Source of the DNA: an uncultured Planctomycetales bacterium
GTDB lineage: Bacteria > Omnitrophota > Gorgyraeia > Zapsychrales > JANLHA01
NCBI GenBank assembly: GCA_964489065.1
Contig: CAZAXH010000004.1
Coordinates: 82,553-146,552 of the forward strand
DNA: 64,000 nt
Direction: 5' to 3'
The notes beneath the pieces were generated by a model that saw nothing but the letters and a program-made list of their open reading frames with translations, had not been told where the DNA came from and did no database searches. A program made the position numbers and the translations under genes. Below, in pieces: positions 6,345 to 62,795 of the stretch (the first letter of the stretch is position 1; each line of letters starts with the position of its first letter).

Positions 6345-6496
6345 TATGAAGCACTACGTTCCTATTAACAATTTGCCTCGAGGAATGGGCTGACTTCTTC
6401 ATATGCGTGCAGACATCCCCGAAGCAGAAGACCTTGTTATCCTCCCGCAGTCACCCCCGGGACTACCCGGGGTCTTCTGCGAAGGCGGATAAACAC
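6345..6496 (+). repeat. intergenic element family, copy A (5' box, hairpin GCAGAAGACC...GGTCTTCTGC, 3' tail GAAGGCGGATAAAC)
   Basis: The copy contains tatgaagcactacg, then aacaatttgcctcgaggaatgggctgacttcttcatatgcgtgcagacatccccgaagcagaagacc, a nested CCCCGGG/CCCGGGG hairpin, and ggtcttctgcgaaggcggataaac. It aligns to copies B-F. Confidence 0.7.
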
Positions 6497-6589
6497 TATC
6501 TAACCGGCCAAGCCGGGCACAACAGAAAAACCCTCTACAAGGCCGCCGGGACCGGGAGTATTATACATTTTTCTCCCCATGCCGGCCGT

Positions 6590-10155: not shown

Positions 10156-10184
10156 GCCCTTAAGGGACTTCCATACCGCTGGTT

Positions 10185-10349
10185 ATTGTGGAACCCACAC
10201 CGATGGGCGTGGGTACTGCTAACAATTCGCTTCGCGGAATGATCTGACTTTTTAACACATGTGAACATCCCCAGAGCAGAAGACCGTGTAACCCATTCGC
10301 CTTCATTCCGCGGGCGTGCCTATGGTCTTCCGCAAAGACGGATAAAACC
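10185..10349 (+). repeat. intergenic element family, copy B
   Basis: The copy reads tgtggaacccacaccgatgggcgtggg, then aacaattcgcttcgcggaatgatctgactttttaacacatgtgaacatccccagagcagaagacc, a loop, and ggtcttccgcaaagacggataaaacc. Confidence 0.7.
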
Positions 10350-10374
10350 ACGCAGGACACCGGGCAGGAAGAAC

Positions 10375-10662
10375 TCATCGCGGGACGTACGTGTTCTGCA
10401 GTTTCTTTTTATTATATGCGCTCGAGGCGCCCTGGACGCACCCAACGACCACCCCAAGCAATATCCACACAGCTGTTATCCCGATGCAAATTTTACCCCA
10501 GAGGATAAATTTTTTACCGATCGGGCTTAAAACCCCGAATTCATCCTTATTATTTTTTCCGGCAAAAATGAAAATGACACCGCATATCAACAGGACAACT
10601 TCCATAAAATCGGCTCCCGGATTTCTTCCCCCGCCCCCCTCATGGGTCGGACATCCTGCCAA
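10375..10662 (-). CDS. small hypothetical membrane protein (95 aa)
   Basis: Two predicted TM helices; no similarity recognised; weak support. Confidence 0.3.
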   Translation of the reverse strand: MAGCPTHEGGGGRNPGADFMEVVLLICGVIFIFAGKNNKDEFGVLSPIGKKFILWGKICIGITAVWILLGVVVGCVQGASSAYNKKKLQNTYVPR

Positions 10663-10691
10663 GACTGCAACGCCCGCTGTTAAAAAAAATA

Positions 10692-10765
10692 AGCCGACGA
10701 GAGGAGTTGAACCTCCGACCCACGGTTTACGAAACCGTTGCTCTACCGGGCTGAGCTACGTCGGC
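10692..10765 (-). tRNA. tRNA-Thr (anticodon CGU)
   Basis: The minus-strand sequence GCCGACGTAGCTCAGCCCGGTAGAGCAACGGTTTCGTAAACCGTGGGTCGGAGGTTCAACTCCTCTCGTCGGCT folds as a cloverleaf. Acceptor 7 bp, D stem GCTC/GAGC, anticodon stem ACGGT/ACCGT with loop TTCGTAA, T-loop TTCAACT. CCA is not encoded. Confidence 0.85.
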
Positions 10766-10989
10766 GTAAAAAACAATTGCGGATGCGTTTAAAAAATAGC
10801 ACCCAAGAAATATTGTGATATTTTACCGAAAAAATCCCATATTGGCAATAACTTTACCACAAAGCTCTCCCGACCGCCTTAAACAGTACAAAGACAGCCC
10901 CTTCAATATAAAAGGAACTGTCTTTGTGTTATCTCTGCCTCCCAGTATGAAACAAAAACCATAAGCCGGACAGTGTTAGCGGGGCCGCC

Positions 10990-11553
10990 TTATTCCAAAC
11001 CAGGGTCACCACCCATAGGGCCTTGCCTAAGGCCCCGCATGGAACCATGTCCCCCGGATTTCCATTCGGATTTCTCCTTATACAGCCCTGGAACCGTCTT
11101 TTTTTGCTCATCCGTCAAGATATTCTTTAAATCAGCCAGGGCCTTCACCAGCAGCTTGGCCTTCGCCTTTTTAATATCATATTTCTGCTCAATAAGCGCA
11201 TTCGCCTGCTCCACATCAATCACATCTTCCCGGAGCAAGGCCTTGACATCAAGACCGATAACCTCAATCTGGGCGTCCTTCATAATAATATCTTTCTTCA
11301 CGTCATGTTTTAACGCTCTGATTTTTCTGACCTGCTCATCGGAAAGATTCAGTTCACCCCAGTGCTTAAGCAACATTTGGGCTTTTTTCAGGAATTTGTC
11401 CTCCAGGCCTTTTTTCTCATCAGGCCCCCCAAGGCCGCCATCCTCCATAAAACCGCCGCAGACCGGCGGTTTCGCCCCTGCCGGCGCGACAGAAACCGCC
11501 ATCAGGGATATCCCCGCCACAACAATCATCCAGAATGTCTTTCCTCTCATCAT
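10990..11553 (-). CDS. periplasmic Spy/CpxP-family (LTXXQ motif) protein
   Basis: Signal peptide MMRGKTFWMIVVAGISLMAVSVAPAGA. LTXXQ-type motifs LSDEQVRKIRALK and LTDEQKK are present. The composition is K/E-rich and helical. The start is trimmed from the track ORF (11610) to the MM at 11553. Confidence 0.55.
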   Translation of the reverse strand: MMRGKTFWMIVVAGISLMAVSVAPAGAKPPVCGGFMEDGGLGGPDEKKGLEDKFLKKAQMLLKHWGELNLSDEQVRKIRALKHDVKKDIIMKDAQIEVIGLDVKALLREDVIDVEQANALIEQKYDIKKAKAKLLVKALADLKNILTDEQKKTVPGLYKEKSEWKSGGHGSMRGLRQGPMGGDPGLE

Positions 11554-11643
11554 GCCCTCCTTTTTTAACAGATTCCCGCCGTACACCCCGCTCACTCTCG
11601 TTGTCAGCAAGCCATAAAGACGAAACTGAATCTGCGCCTCATC

Positions 11644-12666
11644 TTATCGGACTAGTCTGTCCGCTGTCGCGATAATCTCCAGATCAAACTCCACGCCTAA
11701 CTCCGCGGCTTTTTTAAGATTAAGTTCAATCAAATAATCAATAGGTTCGATGGGAGGAATATTTCCTGCATACTCACCGTTAATGATTTGATCCAGAATT
11801 TTTGCCTGCAGGGCACCCAAAGAAAAATGATTTGTTAAAACTCCGCCGATAGCACCTTCATCAGTAAATTTGCTGGTAATACCAAGAATAGGCTTTTTAT
11901 ATAAATTCTGCAGTTTTCTAAACTGTTCTTCATCGGAACTTAACTGATCAAGGCTGAACCAACCGAATATAAGATCCGGTTCACCCTGCTTCAAGTTCTC
12001 CAGCAAAAGATCACAGCTGGCCTGTCCTTGCTCAGGATCATAAAAATCTATATATATAATATCCCACCCTTTCGTATCCGTAAGTTCTTTAAGATGTTTT
12101 ACATAGATCGTTTCCTGCAGCACGTTACTATCGTACACAAAGGCTATTCTCTTAAATCTGCTTCTATCAGAAAACATCTTGCGGAAAAGCTCCAGTCTCG
12201 CCAAGGGGCTTACCCCATAACTTATGCCTGTTATATTTTCACCCGTAGGTTTATTAAATTCTTTTATCAATCCCCCCTCTATGGGAAAGGTTACGCCACA
12301 AAAAATCATCGGAATTCCGGCCTTCTTTATTTCCGGCCATACCGGCACACTCGCCTGCGTCCCGATCGTAATAAGGACATCGGCGCCTTGTTCAATCAAT
12401 TCCTGCGCCATAGCAACGTTTTCACCAAAATATTTTGACTCACTATACGCTATTTTCGTCGCTAAAAACTGGACGTCGCGCCCTTCTTGGCGACTCAAAG
12501 ATTTAAAAGCGTCCTGAAAGCCCTGTTCGATCTCGACTCCAAACGGAGGAGATACCCTTATGACTCCAATAACGATCTGTTTTTTATCAGCTGCTTTACA
12601 AATTGTGGTGTTCACAAAACAGAAAATGGCACAAATACCGATAATTTTTAATAGCTTCCGACTCAT
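11644..12666 (-). CDS. ABC-transporter-type periplasmic substrate-binding protein (PF04392-like)
   Basis: Signal peptide, then IVIGVIRVSPPFGVEIEQGFQDAF...ADVLITIGTQAS...GISYG. This layout is typical of the 'ABC transporter substrate binding protein' family. Confidence 0.65.
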   Translation of the reverse strand: MSRKLLKIIGICAIFCFVNTTICKAADKKQIVIGVIRVSPPFGVEIEQGFQDAFKSLSRQEGRDVQFLATKIAYSESKYFGENVAMAQELIEQGADVLITIGTQASVPVWPEIKKAGIPMIFCGVTFPIEGGLIKEFNKPTGENITGISYGVSPLARLELFRKMFSDRSRFKRIAFVYDSNVLQETIYVKHLKELTDTKGWDIIYIDFYDPEQGQASCDLLLENLKQGEPDLIFGWFSLDQLSSDEEQFRKLQNLYKKPILGITSKFTDEGAIGGVLTNHFSLGALQAKILDQIINGEYAGNIPPIEPIDYLIELNLKKAAELGVEFDLEIIATADRLVR

Positions 12667-12849
12667 ACTGTTACTCCTTGTTTAGGCTACAGACAATTAT
12701 AAAATCTTAATTTCCCCTATCCTGCGGCCCCGGAATGGATCGGCCGGCTGTTCAAATAATAAACACAAATGTCATCCCGTTTTTTAAACTATCCGGGTTT
12801 CATTTCTTAGGCAACGGCATTGCATAAAAGCTCGGCATGCGTGAAATCA

Positions 12850-12960
12850 AAGGTATAACCCCAAAAGCAAACGCTGGACTTTCTTGCCCCGCGAATGCTC
12901 TTTGCCATTAAAAATTATACGTTAATTCCGGACGCCAATCAAAACAATTATACAAATTAC
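12850..12960 (+). repeat. degenerate remnant (copy H) of the intergenic element's promoter-proximal module
   Basis: ggtataaccccaaaagcaaacgctggac...gccccgcgaatgc...caatcaaaacaattatac aligns to the 62803-62860 part of copy E and to 22130-22180. The core hairpin is missing. Confidence 0.35.
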
Positions 12961-13011
12961 CATTAATCCTTGCTCTTTTAAAATATAGATCCGGGAAAAG
13001 CGGCTTGCCTG

Positions 13012-13072
13012 TATATTAAAACGCCCATCTCCAAGCGGATCTCAAATATTTAAGACTACCGGGAGATGGGCG
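13012..13072 (-). terminator. rho-independent terminator downstream of the porin-like gene
   Basis: An 11-bp stem CGCCCATCTCC/GGAGATGGGCG is followed on the minus strand by TTTTAAT. Confidence 0.45.
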
Positions 13073-13114
13073 TGATTCAACTTTTTATTTAAATACTCGT
13101 GCCAGAAACAGCAA

Positions 13115-14476
13115 TTAAAAACGCACTTCCGTATAAAGAGAAACCTGGTTCGTGGGCTTCCCTGATTTAAAGGCTTTTTCCAAATAACCTCTTGGCCAAA
13201 ACCGGGCACCGACCAGCTGAAACGAAACATTTTTATTTAATTCATATTTTATATACGCATTGGCCTCTGTTGCTTTTCCTTTTTCCCCGGATATGGCCGT
13301 AACACAATCAAGCAGCGCATACCGCGTCCCGACCGTTATTTTGTCTTCCGTTGTTATGCCATACTCTTTATAAATCTTATTCTCCATCTGTTCGCCTTTT
13401 CCGCCAAAGCCATACTCCACGCCGACAAAAGGAATCTTGACGTTGACGACATCTTCGGCGTACGAATCATTTAAAACCTCGTAGGTAATATAGGCCATGG
13501 AGTAAAAACAGTCCCGGCCGATACGCCGGAAATTCTCATCCTTCCCAGGGCTGGCTAGCTTATCTCCGGAAACATAAACGTAACCCGCATTCAAATCAAT
13601 GGCCTTGTCCTCCTCTAATTTAATGGAGTAGTCGCCCTTTAACCTGGCCAGCCAACCCGTGTAATCTTTATTGGCGATATCGTCTTCCCCGGCATTAACT
13701 CCCAGGAGAAAAGCATACGCCAGGTTATCGATAAACGTTTTTCCATCACCTTTTAATGTCCAAAGGACAAGGTTAGACTTTTCGCCCAGGGTGTCATCCA
13801 AGCGCTTGCGGTAATAAGTTCCCATCCTAAAATTATGGCCTTCAAAAATCTCGTCGGTCTGGGCCTCAAGACCATAAATAAGTTCGTCATAATTTCCTTC
13901 CATGGCGATCCCGGTCCCCATCTTAGCCCGCTGCCCAAAAAAAGTGCTCCAGTTAATCTTAGCCCAATTCTTGTCCACCTTTACGGCATCAATGGCCGTC
14001 AATTCCAGAAAACGTCCGGAATGAGGTCCGTAATAGAAGAAGGCGTCCTCACTTTCCCCCATATATTGCCTTCCAAGAGTGACGCTAAAACCCTGCCAAA
14101 AATCTGTAAGCTGTAGATAGAGATTCGCCACAACCGGATCAGCCGACTCGGGGGCGTCTTCTAATTCGCTTGTATGATAAGTTTTCCGGTAATGCTGCCA
14201 ATTCTGCCAGTAGCCAAGCTCGCTCCTTAAAAGCAGGTTTTCCGTTATCTTGGAGTCCAAAGCAACCAAGGCCCTTGTTATAATGGCCCCGTCGTCGCCC
14301 CCCTTCCCGCGGTAATTAGTCATATACGTTGCCATCGTCATGATGTCACCGCTCACTTCAATCCTTTCTTCCAAATCTTGCAAAAAGTCTGCGTTGGCGA
14401 CTCCTGCCGTGGACACCATAAATCCAACAAATGTCAACACGCAAAAAAATTTTCCCGGGCTTTTCTCCATAACCAT
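13115..14476 (-). CDS. outer-membrane beta-barrel (porin-like) protein
   Basis: Signal peptide ...FMVSTAGVANA; alternating amphipathic beta-strand pattern; C-terminal ...YTEVRF with terminal Phe typical of OMP beta-barrels. Confidence 0.5.
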   Translation of the reverse strand: MVMEKSPGKFFCVLTFVGFMVSTAGVANADFLQDLEERIEVSGDIMTMATYMTNYRGKGGDDGAIITRALVALDSKITENLLLRSELGYWQNWQHYRKTYHTSELEDAPESADPVVANLYLQLTDFWQGFSVTLGRQYMGESEDAFFYYGPHSGRFLELTAIDAVKVDKNWAKINWSTFFGQRAKMGTGIAMEGNYDELIYGLEAQTDEIFEGHNFRMGTYYRKRLDDTLGEKSNLVLWTLKGDGKTFIDNLAYAFLLGVNAGEDDIANKDYTGWLARLKGDYSIKLEEDKAIDLNAGYVYVSGDKLASPGKDENFRRIGRDCFYSMAYITYEVLNDSYAEDVVNVKIPFVGVEYGFGGKGEQMENKIYKEYGITTEDKITVGTRYALLDCVTAISGEKGKATEANAYIKYELNKNVSFQLVGARFWPRGYLEKAFKSGKPTNQVSLYTEVRF

Positions 14477-14599
14477 TCTCCTTCCTAAATTTAAGGTAAA
14501 TTTTTTAATATTATAACTCGTGTTTGATCATGGATTTAACAAAATTCTGCTTTTTTTATATTCTAAAAATCAACAAAACTCGTGAGCCCCCGGGTTGTC

Positions 14600-14807
14600 A
14601 TGGCCGTGGGTTTCCCGCGATAATAAAAAAATCTTGTCTGGGCCCTTGATTCATCACGTTACGCCTTCCCCCCGGGACATGGCAACAGATGACTCCACCG
14701 GGTTCGGCTGCGTCATTAGAAATGCAAACATCCCCGGGGCAAAAAACTTTGTGGACCCCTCGCATCCAGGGGCATGCCCGTGGCCTTCTGCTCATGGGGA
14801 TAAAACC
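14600..14807 (+). repeat. intergenic element family, copy F (divergent porin/MCP region)
   Basis: The copy reads ...ttagaaatgcaaacatccccggggcaaaaaac...ggggcatgcccgtggccttctgctcatggggataaaaccc. The 5' part is partly degenerate. Confidence 0.55.
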
Positions 14808-15063
14808 CAGCTTAATATCCGCATCTGTTTTCCCGGCCCCCGTCCTGAACCGCCCATATTTCTATAATCAATGAATGGTTCTGTTGTTAAAAAAGTTAAA
14901 ATTTTACATGCAAGTCTTTAAGAGGAGCGATATATTGAGTATGATGTTTTGAAAAGTGCGGACACAAAATTTCCCAAATAGTTTTGAAATTATAAATAGA
15001 GAATAATTATTGTGCCGTCTATTTCTTTGTTTCTTGATTTCAAAAACAGAAAAGAGAAGTGTT

Positions 15064-16938
15064 ATGTTTTTTCTAAAAAAGACACGAATGTTATTTAAGC
15101 TGCTCCTTTCCTATTTAATCCTCATCTCCCTTCCGCTGTGTGCTTTGGGATATATCTCTTACGCCAGCGCTTCCAAAGCAATCGTCTCCCTGTTTTCCCA
15201 GTCCTTAAGTAGCGTCGTTGAAAAATCCGTAAAACAAATAGATGCTTTTCTGGAAGTTTGTATTCGCGACATGGAAGAATTATCGGGGAAACCGACTACA
15301 CAGATAGCGTTTTACTTAAATGACTATATGCGTAACCGTCTTTCCGATGTCGTCAAGGAATACCAAGATTACATAAACAAACGGCCACACATATCCCGAA
15401 TCCGCTTAATATCTCTTGACGGCAAACAGATACTCTGCACTTCCGATAATGCGGAAAACATCAATAGAGATGAATCCCAAGCCGAATGGTTTCTTGGCGC
15501 GCTGGACAGGAAGGGGAAAGAAGTATATATCTCCGATATGTATCTTGATCAAACAACAGACTCGGCGATATTAACGATGTCAAAAGTGATAACCTCCAAA
15601 GAGGACAAAAAGGTCGGCGTTCTTGCTCTGGACATAAAAGGAAAAGCCATAACTTCGTTTATTGATGAACTGAAGGCGGGCGAAACAGGCTATGGATTTT
15701 TAATAAACAAGGCCGGTTTTTATCTGGCTTCCCCAAAAAAAGACCGTATTTTGCGTTTTAATCTACTCAAGACGCCGGATGAAAAATTAAAAGACATAAT
15801 AAATCAGATGATAAAAATGAAGCAGGGGCAGGGCGACTATGAGTTCGAAGGCGTCTTAAAACACGTGTTTTATGCTCCTTATCAGCGTTTAAATTGGGCC
15901 GCCGCAATAACTATTCCCGACAATGAATTATTAAAAGAGGCCTTAAAATTAAAGGGCGTTATTGTTGCCGTCGGAATTATTAGTATTATCGTGGCGATCA
16001 TTTTGAGTTTCTTTATATCGCTTTCAATTACAAATCCCATAGAAAAGTTAAAAGAAGGGATGAAAAATATCGGGGCGAAGAATTTAACGAGGGCGGTGCG
16101 TGTCAAGAGCCGTGACGAAATTGAGGACCTGGCGGTTGCTTATAACAAGGTTGTTGAAACCTTAAGAGACGTCATTTTTCATATCCAGGACGCCGGATTC
16201 AAGATCAACCAATTTGCTTCCACTATTAACAGCGGCGCGAGCAAACAAGCCGAAGACGCCGAAGCCCAGGCGGCCACGGTGGAAGAGGCCAGTTCCACGA
16301 TCGAGGAACTGGCCAACACATCCTCCCATATCTCCGAAAGGGCAACAGGCGTTGCTAAAACTGCTGAACGCACGCTTTTAAGTATGCAGGAGGTGAATGA
16401 AAAGGTGATTCAAACGGATACGCGTATCGCCAATCTGGAGAAAAAGTTGAGATATATCGGAGGGATCACCGAACTGATTGACAACGTTGTTGACCAGACA
16501 AACCTTTTAGCGATCAATGCCAGTATTGAAGCGGCGAGAGCGGGAGAGCTGGGGAAAGGGTTTAGCATTGTGGCCAGAGAAGTCAAAAAACTGGCCTCAA
16601 AGTCTTCTTCCTCTACCAATGAGATAAGAGCCATCATTGATGAAATTCAGGAAGAAACGAAATTAGCAGTCGACGACATGAGTAATTCTGTTAAGCAAGT
16701 GGCGCAAGTTTTAGAATTAGTGCAGGAAACCAGCACATCCGCACAAGAAATTTCGCGCACCATCCAGGAGCAGCAAGTCGCTTCCAATGATACCGTAAGT
16801 TGCATATTGAATATTTCCGAGGTTACTCAAAAATTTTTGGCTTCCACACAACAATTTGTGGACTCTGCCCAAAAACTTTCCCGCTTATCGGAAGAATTAA
16901 AAAAATCCGTTGGAGAATTTATCTTAGGCAAATCCTAA
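15064..16938 (+). CDS. methyl-accepting chemotaxis protein with periplasmic Cache-like sensor and HAMP domain
   Basis: N-terminal TM helix, ~280-aa periplasmic region, second TM helix, HAMP domain, then the MCP signalling domain (...[31 protein letters not shown]...). The start is set at the ATG at 15064 (MFFLKK). Confidence 0.85.
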
Positions 16939-16971
16939 CACAGGCACCCCGTTGAGGGCGAAAGGCCCGTT

Positions 16972-19128
16972 TCACTCAGCCCAGTCTTTCCGCTGGAATT
17001 TTAAGACCGGCAGAAAATTGGAATATTGGTCCGTCCAGGGGCGCACCGGATCGCCAGACTGAAAAGACACGGGCTCCCATCGCAACACTTCCGTCAATTT
17101 ACGGAAACACGCCTCATCCCAAGTCACCGCCGCCCATTTAGAGAAAAACGTACCCTTCCCTTCCCCCTGGCCCTCCTGAAACGCAACCCGCGCCCCCAAA
17201 TTCACGGCTTCGACCGCCACAATCCTCCGGATATCAGCAAAATGATTCGAGAGGTGAAACAATAACACCCCTTCCGGTTTAAGGTGCGCCCGGTATTCCT
17301 GAAGGGCTTCCAGAGTCATAAGATGAACCGGCACGGAATCGCCGCTGAAGGTGTCGACGATCATGCAATCATACTGTTTGCCCCCGCTGTTCCGAAGTTC
17401 AATCCGGGCGTCCCCAACGACATGACGGATCTCCGCCCCGGAGCCAGACAGGAAGGAAAAATATGTTCGGGCAAGCCGGATGATCTCCGGATCCAACTCA
17501 TAAGAATCCACGCGCTGCCCTGCGCGGAAATAACTCATCACCGACCCCACTCCCAGCCCCAGGCTCGCGATATCATCGAAATGAAATTCCGGGGACTGTA
17601 GCACCCGGCCGACCGGCGAGTTCAGAGCATAATACGCCAGCGGGATATGGGCGCGGTTATCCAGATAGCGGACACCGTGAATGGTCGAGCCGTGCATAAA
17701 AAACCGAAACCCGGACGGCTTGTCATAAATACGGCTGATCCCGTAATAATTGCGCCCTTTGTACACATATTGTCCGCCGGCTAAAGGTTCCAACAACGCG
17801 AAAAAACTTAAAAACACCACCCCTGCTACCTTATAAACTTTCAATGAATGAAAGGCCTCATCCAGCAAAACCTGAAACAACCCTGCGACCACCAGCCATT
17901 CCACCCAGCCGCCCTGAGGAAAAAGAATATAAAGAACGATCGCGGTTAAAACAGCCAGCGCCGCGTGGGAAATCCGAAACAGGTTCTTTTCCCTGGTCAC
18001 CTGCCAAGCCAAAAGACTCACATAAATACCCATAAGGTATTCGACAAAAGAAACCGAGACAACCGGAATCATCCACGTGACCACCATGCCGCCGCAAAAG
18101 CCACCCAGGGAAAAAATAAAATAATAATACGACAGCTGCCGGGAGCCCGGCGGCCGGATATCATACACCTGCCCCTGAATAAACATGCACAGATAAAACA
18201 AGACAGCCAAAAACGCCCCCAGCCCAAACAAAACCGGTAAGACCGTCAGGTTGTAAGTGAAATATAACAAAACACTCACGCCTATCATGCCGAACGGCCG
18301 ATGGGTGATCCATGCCGGACGCCAGGGCCGCTTTTTAAAAACCAAAGCAAAAGAAAGCAGATACAACGCTAACGGAAGAATCCACAAAAGCGGGATCGGC
18401 AGAATTTCCGACGTCAGGATATTCGTGACGGATAAAAGAAGCATGACCCCAGCGGCGCCATAAAGGAACCAACCCCACGCACGGCGGGGGCCGGCCCAAG
18501 AATCCCCCTCCTTCAAACCCTGTTCATAAACCGCCGTGACCGGCACCTGCCGGGCGGCCACCAGCAGCAACCCCAGAAACAATAAATAAAATCCCCGCCA
18601 CCAGGCCTGCTGCTGCGGCAAGGTAAAGAAATATTCAAAGAAAACCGGATACGTCAGCAAACCCGAAAAAGAGCCCCAATTGGACGTCGCAAACAGCTGA
18701 TAAGGGTCGTCCCGCTCCGCCAGGCTGCTTTGCGACAGCCAGGCCTGAAAAAAAACGCTGGACGTGGACAACAAAAAAAACACCAGGCCGATTGACCAGA
18801 ACAACTGCCAAAAAATACCCAAGACCAGCGGCCAAGATGTAAGTCCGGCGGACAGGCCGATGTCTCTTCCCGGGAAAAAAAACAGCGGCAGCACAAACAG
18901 GGCCAGGTGGACATAAAGGTATCTTTTGAGATCAACGGCCCGCAGGATAATATGCATGTAAGAGTATCCGGCCAGAAGCACGACCTGAAAAAAAACCACG
19001 CATGCGCCCCAGACAAGGTATCCGCCGCCGTAATAAGGCATGATCATCTTGCCGATAATAAGTTCAATTTGAAACAACAGGAAGGAAGCAAGAAACAAAG
19101 CCGCTTTCAGCAGATAAATTTTTTTCAT
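16972..19128 (-). CDS. fused MFS-like membrane domain / spermidine-synthase-like (PABS) protein
   Basis: The N-terminal ~450 aa are polytopic. The C-terminal ~250 aa form an aminopropyltransferase-like fold (GLGVGS, YDCMIVDTFSGDSVP, LKPEGVLL). The architecture is that of the 'fused MFS/spermidine synthase' proteins. Confidence 0.7.
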   Translation of the reverse strand: MKKIYLLKAALFLASFLLFQIELIIGKMIMPYYGGGYLVWGACVVFFQVVLLAGYSYMHIILRAVDLKRYLYVHLALFVLPLFFFPGRDIGLSAGLTSWPLVLGIFWQLFWSIGLVFFLLSTSSVFFQAWLSQSSLAERDDPYQLFATSNWGSFSGLLTYPVFFEYFFTLPQQQAWWRGFYLLFLGLLLVAARQVPVTAVYEQGLKEGDSWAGPRRAWGWFLYGAAGVMLLLSVTNILTSEILPIPLLWILPLALYLLSFALVFKKRPWRPAWITHRPFGMIGVSVLLYFTYNLTVLPVLFGLGAFLAVLFYLCMFIQGQVYDIRPPGSRQLSYYYFIFSLGGFCGGMVVTWMIPVVSVSFVEYLMGIYVSLLAWQVTREKNLFRISHAALAVLTAIVLYILFPQGGWVEWLVVAGLFQVLLDEAFHSLKVYKVAGVVFLSFFALLEPLAGGQYVYKGRNYYGISRIYDKPSGFRFFMHGSTIHGVRYLDNRAHIPLAYYALNSPVGRVLQSPEFHFDDIASLGLGVGSVMSYFRAGQRVDSYELDPEIIRLARTYFSFLSGSGAEIRHVVGDARIELRNSGGKQYDCMIVDTFSGDSVPVHLMTLEALQEYRAHLKPEGVLLFHLSNHFADIRRIVAVEAVNLGARVAFQEGQGEGKGTFFSKWAAVTWDEACFRKLTEVLRWEPVSFQSGDPVRPWTDQYSNFLPVLKFQRKDWAE

Positions 19129-19187: not shown

Positions 19188-19550
19188 TTAACCGATCAAT
19201 TCTTTGATTTTCTGAAGCAAAAGTTCCGGAGCTCCGGATTTCGGAAAATACGCATCCGCACCGGCGTCATAACCGCGTTGGGCATCGTCATCCCGGCCCC
19301 GGACCGAACACATCAAGACAGGGATTTTCTGCAATGCCGGGTCCGCTTTGAGAAGCCGGCAGACCCGGCATCCATCGATATCCGGCAAAATGACATCCAG
19401 CAAAACAAGATCAGGGCGTTCCAGGCGGGTCTTGTTCACCGCCTCCTGGCCGTCCTTGGCGGTCACGACGGCAAACCCTTCTTTTTGGAAATAAGAATGA
19501 AAAACATTACGAAAAAACGAGGAGTCTTCACACACCAAAATCTTTTTCAC
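19188..19550 (-). CDS. single-domain response regulator (REC only)
   Basis: MKKILVCEDSSFFRNV...PDLVLLDVILPDIDG...CSVRGRDDDA..YDAGADAYFPK. Asp and Lys signature positions are present; 120 aa. Confidence 0.85.
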   Translation of the reverse strand: MKKILVCEDSSFFRNVFHSYFQKEGFAVVTAKDGQEAVNKTRLERPDLVLLDVILPDIDGCRVCRLLKADPALQKIPVLMCSVRGRDDDAQRGYDAGADAYFPKSGAPELLLQKIKELIG

Positions 19551-19609: not shown

Positions 19610-19981
19610 TCAGGGCTTCCCTGCAAGAAATTCCTTGAGTTTTTCCAACAGCTTCTCCGGCCCGATCGTTTTGGGGATATACGCGTCCGCCCCCACCTGA
19701 AACCCCAAGGCCTGGTCGCTCTCTTCCGCCTTGGCTGTAAATATGATGATCGGTATTTTTTTGTACTTCTCGTCAAATTTCAGCATCCGGCAGATTTTCA
19801 GCCCGTCAATTTTCGGCAGCATCAGATCCAGAAGAATCAGGTCGGGATGATCATTGCGCGCCTTAGCCAAAGCATCATACCCATTGTCAGCGGTCAGGAC
19901 TTCATACCCGTTCGCTTTTAATGTTTCATATAAAAGATCACATAAGGCCTTGGAGTCTTCACATAATAATATTGTTTTCAT
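19610..19981 (-). CDS. single-domain response regulator (REC only)
   Basis: MKTILLCEDSKALCDLL...PDLILLDLMLPKIDG...IIIFTAKAEESD..GADAYIPK. The start is trimmed to MKTIL. Confidence 0.85.
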   Translation of the reverse strand: MKTILLCEDSKALCDLLYETLKANGYEVLTADNGYDALAKARNDHPDLILLDLMLPKIDGLKICRMLKFDEKYKKIPIIIFTAKAEESDQALGFQVGADAYIPKTIGPEKLLEKLKEFLAGKP

Positions 19982-20071
19982 ACATCGCCTCAACTGGTAA
20001 AAGCTGTTTGTCTATTATAACGAAATGCCTCGGATTTAACAATAAGCTTCTGCCCGCACCCTCTTTTGTTC

Positions 20072-22102
20072 TTACGGTTTTAACGCCTCCGCCTGCGTGA
20101 TCAGGTCCTTAAAGCGCGGATCGTCCGGAGCCCGGTGTTGCCCCTCCTGCCAGGTTGCGATGGCGCGGGTGAAGTCATCCCTGTTGCCATAAAATTTTCC
20201 AAGCTCCACATAAGCGGCCGGATAATCCGGGTCCTTTTCCAGGGCTTTCTGGAAAAAAGACAACGCGGCCGGAGCCGCCCCAGCGGCCGCGAAGCGGCTG
20301 CCCAGAGCGGTCAACCTCCCCGCATCCGTACCCTCCGCCAGTACCCGCTGCGCCGCTTCCAGCGCCGACGGCTGCAATCCCGCCTCCAGATACAACTCCG
20401 TTAAATTATACAGGCTTTCTTCCTCATGCGGATCATATTTAAGAATATTCTGATATATTTCAATCGCGCGAAGATGCTCGCCCTGTTGCTGATACACCAA
20501 CGCCAGATTGCGGCGGGCTTCCAGCAACGCCGGATTCAGGGATTGGACTTTCAGAAAAACCTCCTGCGCCTGCTGCAGCTGCCCCGTCCGTAGATATAAC
20601 ACGCCCAGGTTGCTCCAGGTTTCGGCATATTCAGGATTCACGCCCAGGGCCTTTTCAAAATAATCCCGGGCCTCAAGGACGTTCCCCTCTTCCAGGAAAA
20701 TAAGGCCGAGATTATTCAATGTTTTATAACTCCGGGGATCCAGCCGGATAGCGTGATACAACATCTGTTTGGCGGCCCGGTAGTTCCCCACCCCCATATA
20801 CGCCGCGGCCAGATTATCATAAGGCCGCACTTTACGGGGAGATTTGCGGAGCACGTCCGTCCAGAGCGTCACCGGATTCTTCCACACGGCATTTCTCTGA
20901 TAAGTCAAAATGCCAAGCCCCGCCAGCCAAACCCCTATCACCACATAAAAAAACACACGGTTTTTAAACAGGGCCTGGAATCCTGACACGGCGAAAAGCG
21001 CAAAGCCGGTCAAAGCCAGATAAAGCCAATGCTCAAAAATCATATCCTTCCCCAGCAAAGCGCTTGACAGGAATTCCATCATCAGGCTGACAAGGAACCA
21101 AATAACGCAAAAGCTGAAAACCCGCCGCCGGTTAAACTGCCGGCACGCCCAGGCCGCCAGCCCCACGATCAGGATGATGGACAGAAGCGTCTGCCCTTCC
21201 CACACGCTTTGCGCCCGGGGGAAATCGTAATCCAAATTCTGCCGCACAGGCGCCAGGCATAACCAAAAATACGTTCTCAAAGCGTTCAAAGCCGTCAACC
21301 CGTTATTGACATGGAACCGGCCTGTGGCAAGCTGTTCCCGCAGGTCAACGATAGAAGATGACCGCTCCGCCAGCAGGCTAAAAGGGATAATAAACCAGGT
21401 CAAAAAAAACGGGGACAGCCGTTTCAGGCCCCCCAGGAGGCTCTCGTAGGAGCGGCGGATAAAAAACACGTGGATAATAAAAAGCATCAACGGCAGCGTA
21501 AAGGCGAGCTCTTTGGAAAACATCGCCAGAACCGCCGCGGCCAGGGAGGCGATATAATAATCCCGGTGGGCGGCACCGGCCCATTTGAGATAAAAAACAA
21601 TAGAAAGCAAATAAAAAAACACGGCTAAAAGCACGGCCCTTTGGGAAATATAATTGACCGCCTGGGTCTGCAAAGGATGTGCCAGGAAAACCAAAGCGGT
21701 CAACACGGCGGTGACCGCCGGCGCGCCGGCGTCAGCGGCGGAACGGCTTTCAAAAAACGGTGTCTGTAAAAGCTTCCTCACAAACACGAAGACCAAAAAC
21801 GCGTTCATAAAATGAAGCAGCAGATTGACCACATGATACCCGAAAACATCAAGTCCGCCGAACCGGTAGTTAAGCGCAAAGCTTAAACCCGTTACAAACC
21901 GGGTGTTGAAACTCGCCCATAGCGCCGGCCAATTCCAGAGAGAACGAACGGCGGGATTATGAATAATAAAGATATCGTCATCCAGGTGAAAAGTATTGTG
22001 GAGTGAGTTAGCATAAATCGTCCCGCCCAAAAGGACGATCAGGACAAAGGCGGCAACCCGGGCCCGGTCGGTAAATAACGACATTTTCTCTTGATTTTGC
22101 AT
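20072..22102 (-). CDS. PMT/TMTC-like membrane protein with C-terminal TPR repeats, paralog 3
   Basis: Polytopic N-terminal domain with HLDDDIFIIHNPAV loop motif; C-terminal ~250 aa TPR repeats. The start is trimmed to MQNQEK (GGAG 9 nt upstream) because 22125-22222 is a repeat remnant. Confidence 0.65.
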   Translation of the reverse strand: MQNQEKMSLFTDRARVAAFVLIVLLGGTIYANSLHNTFHLDDDIFIIHNPAVRSLWNWPALWASFNTRFVTGLSFALNYRFGGLDVFGYHVVNLLLHFMNAFLVFVFVRKLLQTPFFESRSAADAGAPAVTAVLTALVFLAHPLQTQAVNYISQRAVLLAVFFYLLSIVFYLKWAGAAHRDYYIASLAAAVLAMFSKELAFTLPLMLFIIHVFFIRRSYESLLGGLKRLSPFFLTWFIIPFSLLAERSSSIVDLREQLATGRFHVNNGLTALNALRTYFWLCLAPVRQNLDYDFPRAQSVWEGQTLLSIILIVGLAAWACRQFNRRRVFSFCVIWFLVSLMMEFLSSALLGKDMIFEHWLYLALTGFALFAVSGFQALFKNRVFFYVVIGVWLAGLGILTYQRNAVWKNPVTLWTDVLRKSPRKVRPYDNLAAAYMGVGNYRAAKQMLYHAIRLDPRSYKTLNNLGLIFLEEGNVLEARDYFEKALGVNPEYAETWSNLGVLYLRTGQLQQAQEVFLKVQSLNPALLEARRNLALVYQQQGEHLRAIEIYQNILKYDPHEEESLYNLTELYLEAGLQPSALEAAQRVLAEGTDAGRLTALGSRFAAAGAAPAALSFFQKALEKDPDYPAAYVELGKFYGNRDDFTRAIATWQEGQHRAPDDPRFKDLITQAEALKP

Positions 22103-22124: not shown

Positions 22125-22262
22125 AAAAAAGCATGAACCCCAAAGCAAGCCCTAGACCCAATGAACCGCAGCAACCTGCGGGGTATTACACACACATCCT
22201 TCGACCCGTTCGCCTGGCTCACTAATATTTTTCTCAGAGCCGGCGGCCTCTTCCCCCGGTCT
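22125..22262 (+). repeat. degenerate copy (G) of the intergenic element (promoter-proximal module plus decayed core)
   Basis: tgaaccccaaagcaagccctagacccaatgaaccgcagcaacctgcgggg is followed by catccttcgacc...ggtcttgggtgtattctaatggataagacggc. The first part aligns to copy E at 62803-62860. Confidence 0.4.
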
Positions 22263-22531: not shown

Positions 22532-22607
22532 TGGTGCCGAGACCCAGAATTGAACTGGGGACGCAAGGCTTTTCAGGCCTTCGCTCTACCAACTGAGCTA
22601 TCTCGGC
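22532..22607 (-). tRNA. tRNA-Phe (anticodon GAA), CCA encoded
   Basis: The minus-strand sequence GCCGAGATAGCTCAGTTGGTAGAGCGAAGGCCTGAAAAGCCTTGCGTCCCCAGTTCAATTCTGGGTCTCGGCACCA folds as a clean cloverleaf. The anticodon loop is CTGAAAA. Confidence 0.9.
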
Positions 22608-42914: not shown

Positions 42915-43052
42915 CTATAGGAGACCCCGCGCCCATAGGCATGGTTCCGAGGAACCATTCGCTTTGCGAGATGATCTATCTTTCTTAACATCCATGCAAA
43001 CATCCCCAACGCAGAAGACCACGGGCACGCCCGTGGTCTTCTGCGAAAACAG
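42915..43052 (+). repeat. intergenic element family, copy D (perfect 17-bp inverted repeat)
   Basis: ctataggagaccccgcgcccataggcatggttccgaggaacc is followed by attcgctttgcgagatgatctatctttcttaacatccatgcaaacatcccc. The hairpin is aacgcagaagaccacgggc-ac-gcccgtggtcttctgcg and the tail is aaaacagataagcagg. Confidence 0.7.
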
Positions 43053-43088
43053 ATAAGCAGGTCTTCCCGTCCTATCAGCTGCCCCGTG

Positions 43089-46699: not shown

Positions 46700-46876
46700 A
46701 TTTATTCGCTTTCTATGGAGCCCCCCGCTTACGGGCATGTCCCTATCAACAATTCGCTTCGCGGAATGACCTGACTTCTTAACATACACGCGAACATCCC
46801 CGAAGCAAGTCGTTGTTAATCTCTTGCCTTCATCCGCGGGCATGCCCGTGGTCTTCTGCGAAGGCGTATAAAATAC
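46700..46876 (+). repeat. intergenic element family, copy C
   Basis: tatggagccccccgcttacgggcatgtccc is followed by tatcaacaattcgcttcgcggaatgacctgacttcttaacatacacgcgaacatccccgaagc. Then come a degenerate arm, gcgggcatgcccgtggtcttctgcgaaggcgtataaaatacc. Confidence 0.7.
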
Positions 46877-49180: not shown

Positions 49181-51130
49181 ATGGATTTATTGAAAGGAAT
49201 GCACATGAAGCCCCCGATAAGGACAACAATCCGGCAGGCGCTGCTATCAGGGAAAGGGACAGGGCTTTTACTCGCCGCCATAACTTTCCTGATTTATTTC
49301 CATGCCTTTCCCAACGGATTCTTACTGGATGATTACAATTTTGTGGAACAAGAATATCAGGAAATATTTAAAACTCCGCAGGATTTCTTCGTGCACATTC
49401 CGCCCCGAACGCATCATTACGCCCCCCTTTATTACTGGACAAACACCGTCCTCTTTCGTCACTTTCAAGCTTATCCATATAGGATGCGCTTTATCCTGTG
49501 GATGGCGTTTCTCGCGAACGTGCTTTTTTTCTTTCAATCCATCCATCTCCTCCTGAAGGACCAAAAAACGGCTTTTCTCTGCGCGGCCTTGTTCGCTATC
49601 CATCCCATTCACGCATTCTATATTCATATGCCCAGCGGCGGTTTTGTGTTCTTCTACACGCTATGCCTGCAAGCGAGTCTGTTCTGGATGTGGAAATATC
49701 TGTCCGGCGCCGCAAGAAATACGGGCCTCTATCTCGCAAGCCTCTTATGCTTCCTGGCCGGGCTTCTCTTCTTTGAGGCCGCCGCCCTCTACCCCCTGTA
49801 TCTTTTGATTTTCATGAGATTTATCAGCACAGAGCGTTGGGGGGTTCACCTCAAACGCGCCCTGCCGTTTTTTACTCTTTCTCTAATCGACGTGTTTCTC
49901 TGGAGCTGGATATGCCGGGGAGAATCCGGTTTTCCGCAAAGAATCCTCCTGCTCGGCCTTTCTGTCCCCCGCTATACAGCGTCTGTAACGCGCCTGATAT
50001 TCTGGTATATGTCGCGGCTGCTCTATCCGGAAGGGCTCGTATTTATTTATAATATGCCCCCGGCACAACAAGAAATCTGGCTCTGGAACGGGCTCGCCGG
50101 ACTTCTATTGTTCTTATTCGTTCTTCTCATGAAACGGCGGCCTAAAGATATAAAAACCCTGGCGCTGGCCTGGTTTCTTACCGGCTGTCTCTTTGTCTTT
50201 CCCGCCAGTTTGACGCATGCTTATATGGGCATGGTGATCGAAACCCATTGGATATATTTCTCAAGCATAGGCCTGTTTCTTCTTTTAACTCTGGGCCTTA
50301 TCCGGGTTCTGAAAAAAATTCGGCCTGGTTTTCAATACGCTTGTTTAGGATTGACCGCGATCTATTTCATGGCCTGGACGCAGACCTATCATGTCATGGC
50401 GCGGTCAGAAAAAACTTACTGTGAATACTGGCTGAAAGTTTGCCCGGCGAACCTTATCCCCTTGATCAATTTATCCAAAATCTACGCCGAAGAAGGCCAG
50501 TTGACCCGGGCCACGGATTACGCCCGGCGCGCATTCCTGCTCGGCCGCGATTGTGTCCCCGCGACCTATGAAAACCTGGCTATGGTCTTAACTTTCAAAG
50601 GGGATGACGCGCAAGCGGAGGACGTCATCACCCGGGCCGCCGGCAAAGGATTCACGTCGCCTTGTTTACTCAACACCCTCGGCGTTATTCACCGCCGTCA
50701 AGGGAACAGCCTCACCGCGGAGCAGGATTTTCTCACCGCCATTAAGCAGGCACCGCGGTACGTTTTGCCCAGGTTAAATTTGGCCAAACTCTATAGTTCC
50801 TCCGGGCGGGAAAAGGAAGCCGTCCGCTGTTATGAAACCGCCCTGTCGCTCCAGCCTGATAAAAAACAAATCTTTCATATTCAACGCCATCTCATGGTGC
50901 TGTATTTAAAACAGAATGCCCCCGACCGATATCACGGGCTTGTCCAGAAGGCGCTGACCCAAAATCCTGTCCAGCGGACATACCTCCGATTAAGCCGTAC
51001 TCTTGAAACATATCATTACTGGCGTGAAGCCCAAGCCTTGTTAAACCAGGCCCAGGAACATTACCCGGAAGATGCTTCCTTACAACAATATTACCGGGAT
51101 TTTATGAAAAGATATGACGCCGCCCGGTGA
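49181..51130 (+). CDS. PMT/TMTC-like membrane protein with C-terminal TPR repeats, paralog 4
   Basis: Polytopic N-terminal domain with FLLDDYNFVEQEY loop motif; C-terminal TPR repeats. Only + strand member of the family here. The exact start is uncertain (Met at 49181 or 49193). Confidence 0.65.
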   Translation: MDLLKGMHMKPPIRTTIRQALLSGKGTGLLLAAITFLIYFHAFPNGFLLDDYNFVEQEYQEIFKTPQDFFVHIPPRTHHYAPLYYWTNTVLFRHFQAYPYRMRFILWMAFLANVLFFFQSIHLLLKDQKTAFLCAALFAIHPIHAFYIHMPSGGFVFFYTLCLQASLFWMWKYLSGAARNTGLYLASLLCFLAGLLFFEAAALYPLYLLIFMRFISTERWGVHLKRALPFFTLSLIDVFLWSWICRGESGFPQRILLLGLSVPRYTASVTRLIFWYMSRLLYPEGLVFIYNMPPAQQEIWLWNGLAGLLLFLFVLLMKRRPKDIKTLALAWFLTGCLFVFPASLTHAYMGMVIETHWIYFSSIGLFLLLTLGLIRVLKKIRPGFQYACLGLTAIYFMAWTQTYHVMARSEKTYCEYWLKVCPANLIPLINLSKIYAEEGQLTRATDYARRAFLLGRDCVPATYENLAMVLTFKGDDAQAEDVITRAAGKGFTSPCLLNTLGVIHRRQGNSLTAEQDFLTAIKQAPRYVLPRLNLAKLYSSSGREKEAVRCYETALSLQPDKKQIFHIQRHLMVLYLKQNAPDRYHGLVQKALTQNPVQRTYLRLSRTLETYHYWREAQALLNQAQEHYPEDASLQQYYRDFMKRYDAAR

Positions 51131-51763: not shown

Positions 51764-53005
51764 CTAAAGCTCTCCGGCGAATTTTTCCTTGATCACCTCA
51801 TAAGCCGCCCGGGGTCGCAGGATGTCCAACTGGCCTGGAACCGGATTGGGCTCCAAAGCCATCACCCCGTACCACTCTTGATTCATATAACCGTCCGGCC
51901 CCGCGTGAGCTCCCGGCGTATACCCGCAGTCATGCGTGACGGCCGACGGAGCCCACTCCCCCTCATCTTTCCACCATCCGTCGGCGTACTGGAACACCAC
52001 CCCGCCTATATTCGGGCCGCCATGAGCCGCGTTATAACCCAAAATCGTGTCCCAACAACCGGCGATATACCTGGCCTGCATGTCCGGACGCTCTTTACCA
52101 TTCTCCGGATGATCCGCTCCAAGAACAAACCACGCGTCCGTGCCGAATTCCGTTATCAAGACCGGCTTAGCGGACCGCTTCTGGTACTGCAGAAAAAAAT
52201 TGTTTGTCTTAGATCCGAAATCTTCCCCACGATACACGTTGCATCCATGGATATCCACGTCGGGTAAGACGTCATCCGTCGCATGGATCCCAATGTCACC
52301 CAAGTCCGCGGAAACCATCATCACCGGGTGAAAAGAATCTCCTTCCACTGCCTTAATTTTCCTAGCCAGCGTATTTATAAATTTATAAAAAGCGGCCGCC
52401 TGATCCTCCCTCCGGCAGGATTCGTCCGCGCCTTTGTAAGTACAGAAAGCCATTTCGTTCTCGTTGGCGATGCCCCACATTAAGATCGCCGGGTCATCCT
52501 TGAATTCCGCGACATAGTCCAGGATGTCCTTTTCCAAGGAAGACAGATCGCCGTTCACATAATCCGACTGATGCGGAATCCAGTAACCGGCAATGACCTT
52601 TAACCCCTGTTCGTTAGCTTTCTTAAGAAGAGCCGGGGTAACCTTTCCCCATGTCCGGATCGTGTTGGCATTCATGCCTTTGATCAAAGGCAGGTCCTGG
52701 TCTAAGAGAAGAGGATTCTCATACTCCTGCTCCCCCGGGCAATCAAATTGCGGCTGCCCGTCCGTGGTGCCGCGGTACCAGCATAAGCCGTACTGGGAGG
52801 GGAACGACCCGATCGGCGTGTTAGAATACCCCATCCCTTTCACCAGAAACGGCTCATACCGGCCGTCCCGGTCAAAATCCGTCAATAACTGCCGCCCTTC
52901 GACTTTGACATAAGGATACGCCCAACAGGAAGAAACCTCTGATAAGAAAAAACCCACAATCGCCCCAACCACTATTCCGTATTGAATCCCTGTCCTTTTC
53001 ATCAT
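51764..53005 (-). CDS. secreted clan GH-A TIM-barrel glycoside hydrolase/transglycosylase, GH72-like (short paralog)
   Basis: Signal peptide; FLVKGMGYS...QDLPLIKGMNANTIRTWGKV...GLKVIAGY...AILMWGIANENE (acid/base NE)...KPVLITEFGTDAW (nucleophile TExG). Order and spacing parallel fungal Gas1/Gel (FYIRGVAYQ...RDIPYLKKLNTNVIRVY...FFAGNEV...FFSEYGC). Confidence 0.55.
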   Translation of the reverse strand: MMKRTGIQYGIVVGAIVGFFLSEVSSCWAYPYVKVEGRQLLTDFDRDGRYEPFLVKGMGYSNTPIGSFPSQYGLCWYRGTTDGQPQFDCPGEQEYENPLLLDQDLPLIKGMNANTIRTWGKVTPALLKKANEQGLKVIAGYWIPHQSDYVNGDLSSLEKDILDYVAEFKDDPAILMWGIANENEMAFCTYKGADESCRREDQAAAFYKFINTLARKIKAVEGDSFHPVMMVSADLGDIGIHATDDVLPDVDIHGCNVYRGEDFGSKTNNFFLQYQKRSAKPVLITEFGTDAWFVLGADHPENGKERPDMQARYIAGCWDTILGYNAAHGGPNIGGVVFQYADGWWKDEGEWAPSAVTHDCGYTPGAHAGPDGYMNQEWYGVMALEPNPVPGQLDILRPRAAYEVIKEKFAGEL

Positions 53006-62591: not shown

Positions 62592-62795
62592 TCAGAAGCC
62601 GCAGAACTTCAAAAACACCAGCAAAAACGCCGCAATCAAAACACTTATAAGGATGGCCCGGGAAGACCATTTATATTTCATTTTGCCAAAAATACCGTCT
62701 CCGGCCCGATGCAGGCTTTCACCGCAAAAATGACACAAGAGGGCATCGTTATCATAAATCGGTTTCTTGCAATGAGGACAGATATACTCAGACAT
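62592..62795 (-). CDS. small zinc-ribbon membrane protein
   Basis: CPHC...CHFC zinc ribbon followed by one C-terminal TM helix; 67 aa. Confidence 0.4.
   Translation of the reverse strand: MSEYICPHCKKPIYDNDALLCHFCGESLHRAGDGIFGKMKYKWSSRAILISVLIAAFLLVFLKFCGF

Follow-up and report, generated by a model that had tools for sequence, protein, structure and literature searches.

The genome of an uncultured bacterium, deposited as a member of the Planctomycetales and placed by GTDB in the Omnitrophota (GenBank assembly GCA_964489065.1), contains on contig CAZAXH010000004.1 a stretch of 64,000 nucleotides (positions 82,553 to 146,552 of the forward strand; hereafter, the window) in which four genes encode membrane proteins with C-terminal tetratricopeptide repeats (TPRs). 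We refer to them as paralogs 1 to 4 (P1-P4). The locus raises the question of whether these proteins are members of one family and, if so, what the family does and how four copies came to lie in one stretch. The initial annotation had labeled them TMTC-like and had suggested a large lineage-specific expansion. TMTC1-4 (CAZy family GT105) are eukaryotic protein O-mannosyltransferases of the endoplasmic reticulum, whose substrates are cadherins and protocadherins. We consider it likely that P1-P4 are ancient paralogs of a bacterial TMTC branch, which would use polyprenyl-phosphate-linked sugars to glycosylate envelope proteins chosen by the TPR domain.

The four paralogs form one family

P1, P2, and P3 lie on the minus strand. 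P1 (6590-8383, 597 aa) and P2 (8380-10155, 591 aa) are the downstream and upstream members of a tandem pair, in which the start of P1 and the stop of P2 share 4 bp. P3 occupies positions 20072-22102 (676 aa). P4, the most divergent of the four, lies on the plus strand at 49181-51130 (649 aa). The open reading frames (ORFs) of P3 and P4 were found where the initial annotation had placed them, and the peptides quoted from them (FLLDDYNFVEQ in P4) were present. The P3 frame is open further, to a GTG at 22222, which gives an ORF of 716 aa. We took the ATG at 22102 as the start, because a database protein with 100% identity over a 414-aa query is likewise 676 aa long. Orthologs of P4 start approximately 8 or 12 residues further in, and the true start of P4 may lie a few codons downstream of 49181. 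All four proteins have a common build, namely a membrane domain of approximately 400 aa with 11 helices followed by C-terminal TPRs. In P3, the putative catalytic membrane domain is encoded at 20843-22102 (minus strand; residues 1-420, 11 transmembrane (TM) helices), and the TPR domain, with approximately seven repeats and periplasmic by prediction, at 20072-20842 (minus strand; residues 421-676).

Matches to Pfam and NCBIfam in P1-P4 were to TPR families only, and were confined to the C-terminal 170-260 residues. In P3, the Pfam models TPR_1/2/8/19 and related ones spanned residues ~440-710 of the 716-aa ORF. The N-terminal ~400 residues of the four proteins had no Pfam match even at E<=10, and sequence and profile searches of the membrane domains against PDB sequences returned no meaningful match. 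BLASTP restricted to the membrane domains was significant for P1-P3 (8e-22), P1-P2 (7e-15), P2-P3 (1.5e-13), P1-P4 (1.6e-7), and P3-P4 (8.6e-4), and was not significant for P2-P4 (E 0.57). The silence of the domain databases outside the TPRs and the missing P2-P4 match would fit four unrelated membrane proteins, alike only in their TPR tails and hydrophobic composition. A hidden Markov model (HMM) was built from 79 membrane domains (P3 and database homologs), with P1, P2, and P4 left out and the TPRs removed, and was run against all window ORFs of 80 aa or more (236 ORFs). It matched exactly 4 of the 236, each over nearly the whole model: P3 with 481 bits, P1 with 121 bits (E 7e-37), P2 with 116 bits (E 3e-35), and P4 with 36 bits (E 5e-11). 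In a 22-sequence alignment that includes P1-P4, the invariant columns are D41, F139, H142, P143, P285, Y361, and G366 (P3 numbering). D41 is invariant in 82 sequences, all four paralogs among them. At the second position of the DD pair, P1, P3, and P4 carry Asp and P2 carries Ser. An acidic residue in the first extracytoplasmic loop, a hallmark of GT-C glycosyltransferases, is accordingly found in every paralog. The matches of a TPR-free model over ~400 positions, together with invariant D, HP, P, and Y columns common to the four, refute the notion of unrelated proteins, to which we assign practically no weight. In conclusion, the resemblance of P1-P4 is far beyond chance, and they are one family.

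The initial description was borne out in the following respects. A single family of four with the same architecture is present within 64 kb; its members are highly diverged (20-25% pairwise identity over 354-378 shared columns); and 64 kb would amount to ~2% of the genome, provided that its size equals that of the 3.35-Mb contigs of relatives.

P1-P4 belong to the TMTC superfamily

For comparison with the eukaryotic enzymes, we transcribed the alignment of TMTC1-4 membrane domains from supplement 2 of Eisenhaber et al. 2021 (PMC7801869), and used the rows of ArnT, STT3B, PglB, and Pmt1 as negative controls. The eukaryotic set comprised twelve TMTCs, the N-domains of human, zebrafish, and fly TMTC1-4. 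Against these twelve, the bacterial HMM scored 112-159 bits over model positions ~13-405. Among the controls, ArnT reached 12 bits, over HMM positions 167-248 only, and STT3B, PglB, and Pmt1 remained below 0. Reciprocally, an HMM of the eukaryotic TMTCs matched P2 best (112 bits), followed by P1 (92 bits), P3 (72 bits), and P4 (24 bits, E 2e-7), with no further ORF at E<0.5 among the 236 of the window. The bacterial proteins have the build of TMTCs, and their profile similarity to TMTC1-4 extends over the full length (72-159 bits). The TMTC-like label holds on the strength of these reciprocal searches with negative controls and of the fold comparison given below.

Of the TMTC motifs defined in PMC7801869, M1, M2, M4, and M7, together with the sequence HPxxT(E/Q)AV, align with the bacterial sequences column for column. 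M1 (DD in TMTCs) is DD in P1, P3, and P4 and DS in P2. M2 (SHKSYRP, in loop EL1) is matched well by P1 (SNSYYRP) and P2 (GLISYRP); P3 reads SFNTRF, in which the Arg is kept, and P4 THHYAP, in which it is lost. TMTC HPIHTEAV corresponds to HPVQWEAV in P1, HPIQSEAV in P2, HPLQTQAV in P3, and HPIHAFYI in P4, and M3 (GRAD) to GRAI, YRSD, QRAV, and GGFV, respectively. M4 (KE(T/Q)xxT, in loop EL3), the predicted phosphate- and metal-binding motif, is kept in P1 (KESAGV), P2 (KETALV), and P3 (KELAFT); P4 is the exception, with FEAAAL and the Lys lost. At M5 (DW), P1 has a lone D, P3 has DY, and P2 and P4 have neither residue. M7 (ERxxY), which precedes TM10, reads EHFVY in P1, EHWLY in P3, and ETHWIY in P4, while P2 has FRFMY, with the Glu lost and the Arg kept. 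Its consensus is EHRLYLP in the bacterial family and ERVLY(L/M)P in TMTCs. Motifs shared with TMTC1-4 are DD, HPxxT(E/Q)AV, KExxxT, PxSN, E(R/H)xxYxPSxG, and, less uniformly among P1-P4, (S)YRP...LxFxLNY.

Other GT-C families were less similar. Unlike the PMT/POMT enzymes (GT39; yeast Pmt1, Pmt2, and Pmt4), P1-P4 lack the MIR beta-trefoil and have a TPR tail instead of the MIR loop, and the Pmt1 sequence scored below 0 bits against the family HMM, as noted above. Pfam returned no match to PF02366, PF13231, or MIR in any of P1-P4; PF13231 was seen only as precomputed matches on two or three relatives, one of them a PMT_2 match on the P2 ortholog of a relative introduced below (L002). ArnT (GT83), the undecaprenyl-phosphate-L-Ara4N:lipid A transferase, differs from P1-P4 in having a lipid acceptor and no TPR domain. 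TMEM260 (DUF2723), a metazoan O-mannosyltransferase, resembles P1-P4 in that its GT-C module is followed by TPRs, and distant bacterial homologs of it are mentioned in PMC10214176. DUF2723 had no match in P1-P4 at E<=10, their sequence affinity being instead to TMTC, and neither had Wzy_C (PF04932, O-antigen ligase) at the same threshold. The initial annotation had named assignment to an unrelated family, such as ArnT or O-antigen ligase, as the outcome that would overturn its label, and the domain searches gave no such assignment. HMM scores and missing Pfam domains exclude ArnT, PMT, TMEM260, and O-antigen ligase as a closer family. The Leptospira membrane protein LIC11990, whose TPR domain has been solved (8ebf), was tried as a further lead, and nothing came of it.

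Taken together, the sequence comparisons support membership of P1-P4 in the TMTC superfamily (CAZy GT105-like, GT-C fold), with EL4 as a variant loop. This is no new kind of system. TMTC homologs “even among prokaryotes” have been noted before (PMC7801869), and one published bacterial CAZyme table lists GT105 (PMC11166690).

Predicted structure and membrane topology

AlphaFold2 models of P3 had a pLDDT of 94 at full length and of 87.6 for the membrane domain alone. In the model, 11 long helices precede residue 406 and seven TPR-like helix pairs come after it. The 11 helices agree with the 11-TM topology proposed for TMTCs (PMC7801869). A Foldseek search with the full model returned TPR proteins only, including OGT and consensus-TPR structures. 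The comparison of folds showed that the GT-C helical core is conserved in the polytopic membrane domain, whose best structural match was Pmt4, a protein O-mannosyltransferase. Its structural neighbors also included ArnT, AftA/AftB, PimE, ALG enzymes, PIG-U, and GAB1, and no O-antigen ligase was among them. No TMTC structure was found in the PDB copies searched.

In the short loops of the P3 model, K and R account for 14 of 52 residues on the predicted cytoplasmic side, compared with 9 of 77 on the other side. This bias, combined with the 11 TM helices, predicts a cytoplasmic N terminus for P3 and a periplasmic location for its TPR domain and for the loops that carry DD, HP, KE, and EH. The motif residues on the predicted periplasmic loops are D41-D42, R68, H142-P143, K197-E198, D291-Y292, and E357-H358..Y361. 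In GT-C enzymes the active site is extracytoplasmic and the donors are lipid-phosphate-linked sugars. The arrangement predicted for P3 is that of TMTC1-4, with an N-terminal GT-C domain of ~420 aa and 11 TM helices, and C-terminal TPRs on the extracytoplasmic side. The same topology has been shown experimentally for TMTC3 and TMTC4 (PMC7001481).

The paralogs are ancient

Four copies in 64 kb, two of which (P2 and P1) are in tandem with a 4-bp overlap, could be the product of a recent lineage-specific expansion, in which duplications within this Omnitrophota lineage were followed by rapid divergence to new acceptor specificities. The phylogeny of the membrane domains, which had been proposed as a check on this idea, was reconstructed by neighbor-joining (43 membrane domains, 380 columns, 100 bootstraps, simple distance, midpoint-rooted). 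Every window paralog was grouped with its respective orthologs (bootstrap 100%), which came from other genomes, and these groups occupied four separate deep clades. The eukaryotic TMTCs formed one clade (100%) among the bacterial members. The distance among P1-P4 was about that of each of them to human TMTC3 (20-25% vs 17-22% identity).

A locus with 97% identity was present in a Candidatus Omnitrophota metagenome-assembled genome (MAG) from a sludge digester (JAGOJP010000021). Gene order told the same story as the tree. In two relatives with 3.35-Mb contigs (L001 and L002), whose P3 orthologs are just 62% and 75% identical to P3 of the window, the order P3, two REC-only response regulators, a membrane protein of 628 or 717 aa, P2, P1, and an MFS transporter is kept. 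The P4 ortholog in one of these two relatives lies ~95 kb away, together with the same downstream block, which consists of a small TPR protein, proteins of 412, 345, 661, and 564 aa, an ABC ATPase, a GntR regulator, and LeuRS. The window counterpart of the 412-aa protein is 413 aa long and has a weak Glyco_hydro_2_C match.

Close packing of several copies was also not peculiar to this lineage. The sample of related loci was drawn with a narrower alignment and represents the P3-like subfamily only; within it, 24 of 81 loci (~8 kb each) carried at least two family ORFs, and up to four stood in tandem. Such multi-copy clusters occurred alike in Omnitrophota, Nitrospirota, and Deltaproteobacteria.

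A point in favor of a recent expansion is the narrow lineage of P4, the only such lineage among the four. It has just five close orthologs (56-94% identical), all labeled Omnitrophota where a source name was given, and a next match at 27%. The P4 versions of the motifs are invariant among these orthologs, and P4 therefore appears to be under purifying selection. For P1-P3, a recent expansion is largely refuted, and for the set of four we regard it as very unlikely. P1-P4 are ancient paralogs of old subfamilies, and multi-copy clustering is normal for the family, because each copy falls in a clade with its own orthologs, synteny is conserved, mutual identity is low, and 24 of 81 loci are multi-copy. 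The large lineage-specific expansion initially suggested is thus not supported. One caveat concerns the deeper splits and is taken up below.

The family is large. Among 1.84 billion representatives, its profile matched 123,179 clusters at 50% identity at E<=1e-3, and 53,139 at E<=1e-30. Two peptide patterns taken only from the P3-like subfamily matched species-representative genomes at a minimum of 587 loci; the labels among the pattern matches listed were mainly Omnitrophota, Nitrospirota, Deltaproteobacteria/Desulfobacterota, and Planctomycetota. At the source, family proteins are named “tetratricopeptide repeat protein”, with “protein O-mannosyl-transferase” in a few JGI records. Pfam and NCBIfam label P1-P4 just as TPR proteins, and fail to recognize in them a membrane domain whose family exceeds 120,000 such clusters. 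With this domain recognized as a TMTC-type GT-C transferase, a gene class that is very common in uncultured phyla would acquire a function open to testing. The human enzyme family, which is linked to disease and for which a search of the PDB copy returned no solved structure, would gain bacterial models.

Different arrays were seen in other Omnitrophota and in groundwater MAGs (L009/L034, L042, L059, and L060). There, stretches of 8 kb contain three or four family genes in head-to-tail order, and every one of these genes exceeds 400 bits with the P3-type HMM. Unlike the window copies, these look like genuine recent tandem arrays.

Proposed function and alternatives

From the sequences and the P3 model we infer the topology, donor, acceptor, and enzyme activity of P1-P4 as follows. 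Each paralog would span the inner membrane with 11 TM helices, expose its conserved acidic and basic loop motifs to the periplasm, and carry behind them a TPR domain that is likewise periplasmic. The membrane domain would take a sugar from a polyprenyl-phosphate-linked donor, which in a bacterium should be undecaprenyl-phosphate-hexose. The residue acting on the acceptor would be the first Asp of the DD loop. The donor phosphate and a metal ion would be bound by E(H/R)xxY and by the Lys and Glu of KExxxT. Choice of the acceptor would fall to the TPR domain; the most likely acceptors are proteins of the periplasm, outer membrane, or cell surface, and the hexose would be passed to Ser or Thr of these TPR-bound envelope proteins (O-glycosylation). 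The four old subfamilies probably differ in acceptor, and the initial proposal of different acceptor specificities among P1-P4 is a reasonable idea. Motif changes in P4 and P2 suggest that the paralogs may differ in donor use or catalytic competence too. In P4, and partly in P2, predicted donor-binding residues are replaced, which may point to another donor or to a non-catalytic partner. Unlike TMTC1-4, the proteins are bacterial, with a predicted location in the inner membrane and periplasm; the donor can accordingly not be dolichyl-phosphate-mannose and is presumed to be an undecaprenyl-phosphate-sugar; and this bacterium has no cadherin substrates.

Several points weigh against the proposed function and against the TMTC affinity on which it builds. 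No demonstrated activity of any bacterial member, and no functional study, was found in the literature searched. No gene for a polyprenyl-phosphate glycosyltransferase (donor synthesis) and no obvious acceptor gene adjoins any paralog, and within the 64-kb window no polyprenyl-phosphate-sugar synthase or glycosylation cluster was found. Pfam DUF1736 (PF08409), the marker of eukaryotic TMTCs, had no match in P1-P4 (E<=10) or in 22 family members (E<=1). The EL4 loop is shorter than in TMTCs, the TPRs are fewer, and the DW motif is merely approximated (DY in P3) or missing. P2 lacks the second Asp of DD, and P4 lacks the Lys and Arg residues for which binding of the donor phosphate is predicted. 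Finally, the tree is a midpoint-rooted simple-distance neighbor-joining tree, and its deep branching order is unreliable.

The rest of the window is otherwise housekeeping in character, with SecA, LeuRS, H+-PPase, and matches to the release-factor, BamD (YfiO), LptE, and lipid A acyltransferase families, as well as UvrC- and MurJ-like products judged from sequence. These envelope genes (lipid A acyltransferase family, LptE, BamD-like, and MurJ-like), none of which adjoins a paralog, would suit a non-protein acceptor, such as lipid A or the lipopolysaccharide (LPS) core as for ArnT, a glycolipid, or an envelope polysaccharide, with the TPR domain merely docking the enzyme to an assembly machine. 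The fold is indeed common to ArnT, AftA/AftB, PimE, and ALG enzymes, whose targets are lipids or glycans. However, the sequence similarity is TMTC-specific, ArnT reaching only 12 bits, and the best structural match is a protein O-mannosyltransferase. The combination of GT-C domain and TPRs is moreover the build of the protein-modifying TMTCs, with TMEM260 as a second such protein O-mannosyltransferase, and no LPS-modification operon was found around the paralogs. We regard a non-protein acceptor as improbable.

A second alternative concerns individual copies. P4, and possibly P2, may be non-catalytic pseudo-enzymes that provide a TPR scaffold or pair with a paralog that is active, with the P2-P1 pair analogous to the Pmt1-Pmt2 heterodimer. 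In P4, the Arg residues of M2 and M3 are missing, as are the M4 Lys and the M5 Asp; P2 has DS at M1 and FR in M7, and lacks the M5 aspartate. The 4-bp overlap makes P2 and P1 translationally coupled, and PIG-U and GAB1 are among the structural neighbors. PIG-U is a GT-C-fold protein without enzyme activity. On the other hand, P4 retains DD, HP, and both glutamates (those of M4 and M7), and the invariance of its variant motifs over orthologs 56-94% identical fits a working site of altered specificity; P2 is the best TMTC-profile match of the four. Loss of catalysis in P4 or P2 is in our judgment possible, though not what we would expect, and a Pmt1-Pmt2-like heterodimer of P2 and P1, proposed by analogy, is a speculative possibility.

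The reading that we prefer, TPR-guided glycosylation of envelope proteins by ancient bacterial TMTC-type enzymes, can be extended. Omnitrophota and several other phyla might run periplasmic protein O-glycosylation by batteries of TMTC-type enzymes, each TPR domain picking other envelope proteins, and the eukaryotic enzymes of cadherin O-mannosylation might have come from inside this bacterial radiation. P3 would then be wired to the conserved pair of REC proteins and a membrane-bound spermidine-synthase-like protein, and P2-P1 would be a heterodimer in which one subunit is degenerate and the other complete, as in Pmt1-Pmt2. As a whole, this extension is doubtful. If true, the wiring of P3 to response regulators would hint at signal-controlled envelope glycosylation.

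Gene neighborhood of P3

P3 opens a syntenic block on the minus strand. The first REC-only response regulator (19610-19993, minus strand, 127 aa; PF00072, E 1.5e-27) follows 78 nt past the P3 stop and has the same position in L001 and L002. After a gap of 59 nt comes the second (19188-19550, minus strand, 120 aa; PF00072, E 1.4e-25), which is syntenic in both relatives as well. The block ends with a polytopic membrane protein with a C-terminal spermidine-synthase-like domain (16972-19128, minus strand, 718 aa; NCBIfam NF037959, “fused MFS/spermidine synthase”, E 2e-16). This protein has no Pfam match, and its syntenic counterparts are the 628- and 717-aa genes of L001 and L002. The initial annotation had put P3 directly downstream of the two regulators. 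That orientation has to be reversed: the regulators lie 3' of P3 on the same strand, and P3 is transcriptionally upstream. A promoter-like site is present at 20042-20014, in the gap between P3 and the first regulator, and terminator-like sites were no commoner than in shuffled sequence.

Between the 718-aa gene and P2, the window differs from L001 and L002, where the genes called are two small ones. Genes in the interval 10156-16971 include one for a methyl-accepting chemotaxis protein (15010-16938), one for an ABC substrate-binding protein (11644-12666), and one for a 453-aa protein without a Pfam match (13115-14476). The GC content of this interval is ~42-46%, compared with ~52% elsewhere.

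Intergenic elements and other features

With nhmmer, a repeated intergenic element of ~145 nt was detected six times in the window, each time on the minus strand and between genes (6355-6498, 10209-10352, 14715-14811, 42941-43060, 46731-46876, and 62889-63037). It contains a long GC-rich hairpin, GCAGAAGACCACGGGCATGCCCGTGGTCTTCTGC, which in most copies an insert interrupts. Its 3' part, GGGGATGTT.GCA...AAGTCAG.TCATTCCGCGAAGCGAATTGTT, is conserved. The element had no Rfam family at the gathering threshold, Rfam finding two tRNAs only. The initial annotation had placed it upstream of both P2 and P3. This was correct for P2, where the copy at 10209-10352 scored 135 bits with nhmmer, and incorrect for P3, where there was no nhmmer match. 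Another copy lies between P1 and the MFS gene, and the element is not specific to the TMTC-like family.

Just 5' of the P3 ATG, a distinct piece of 54 nt (22127-22180, minus strand) is 85% identical to 62801-62854, and a weaker third copy is found at 12844-12879. Copies lie directly 5' of two ATGs, those of P3 (22102) and of a small zinc-ribbon-like ORF (62592-62795). The piece contains a hairpin, CGCAG.TTGCTGCG, and its GG-N10-GC/TTGCT stretch bears a loose resemblance to a sigma-54 -24/-12 site.

The conserved block adjoining P4, which also holds a 565-aa membrane protein and the ABC ATPase, includes two paralogous secreted proteins (51764-53005 and 54280-56262, both minus strand). They have in common an N-terminal part of ~400 aa with a weak match to Glyco_hydro_2_C (TIM barrel), and the longer one (54280-56262) adds a C-terminal extension with a faint match to bacterial Ig domains.

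P2 and P3 are each preceded, at a distance of ~430-540 bp, by a tRNA gene on their own strand, namely tRNA-Thr(CGT) (10692-10765, minus strand) for P2 and tRNA-Phe(GAA) (22532-22607, minus strand) for P3. tRNA-Phe is preceded by a near-consensus promoter, TTGACA-17-TAAAAT, at 22650-22622.

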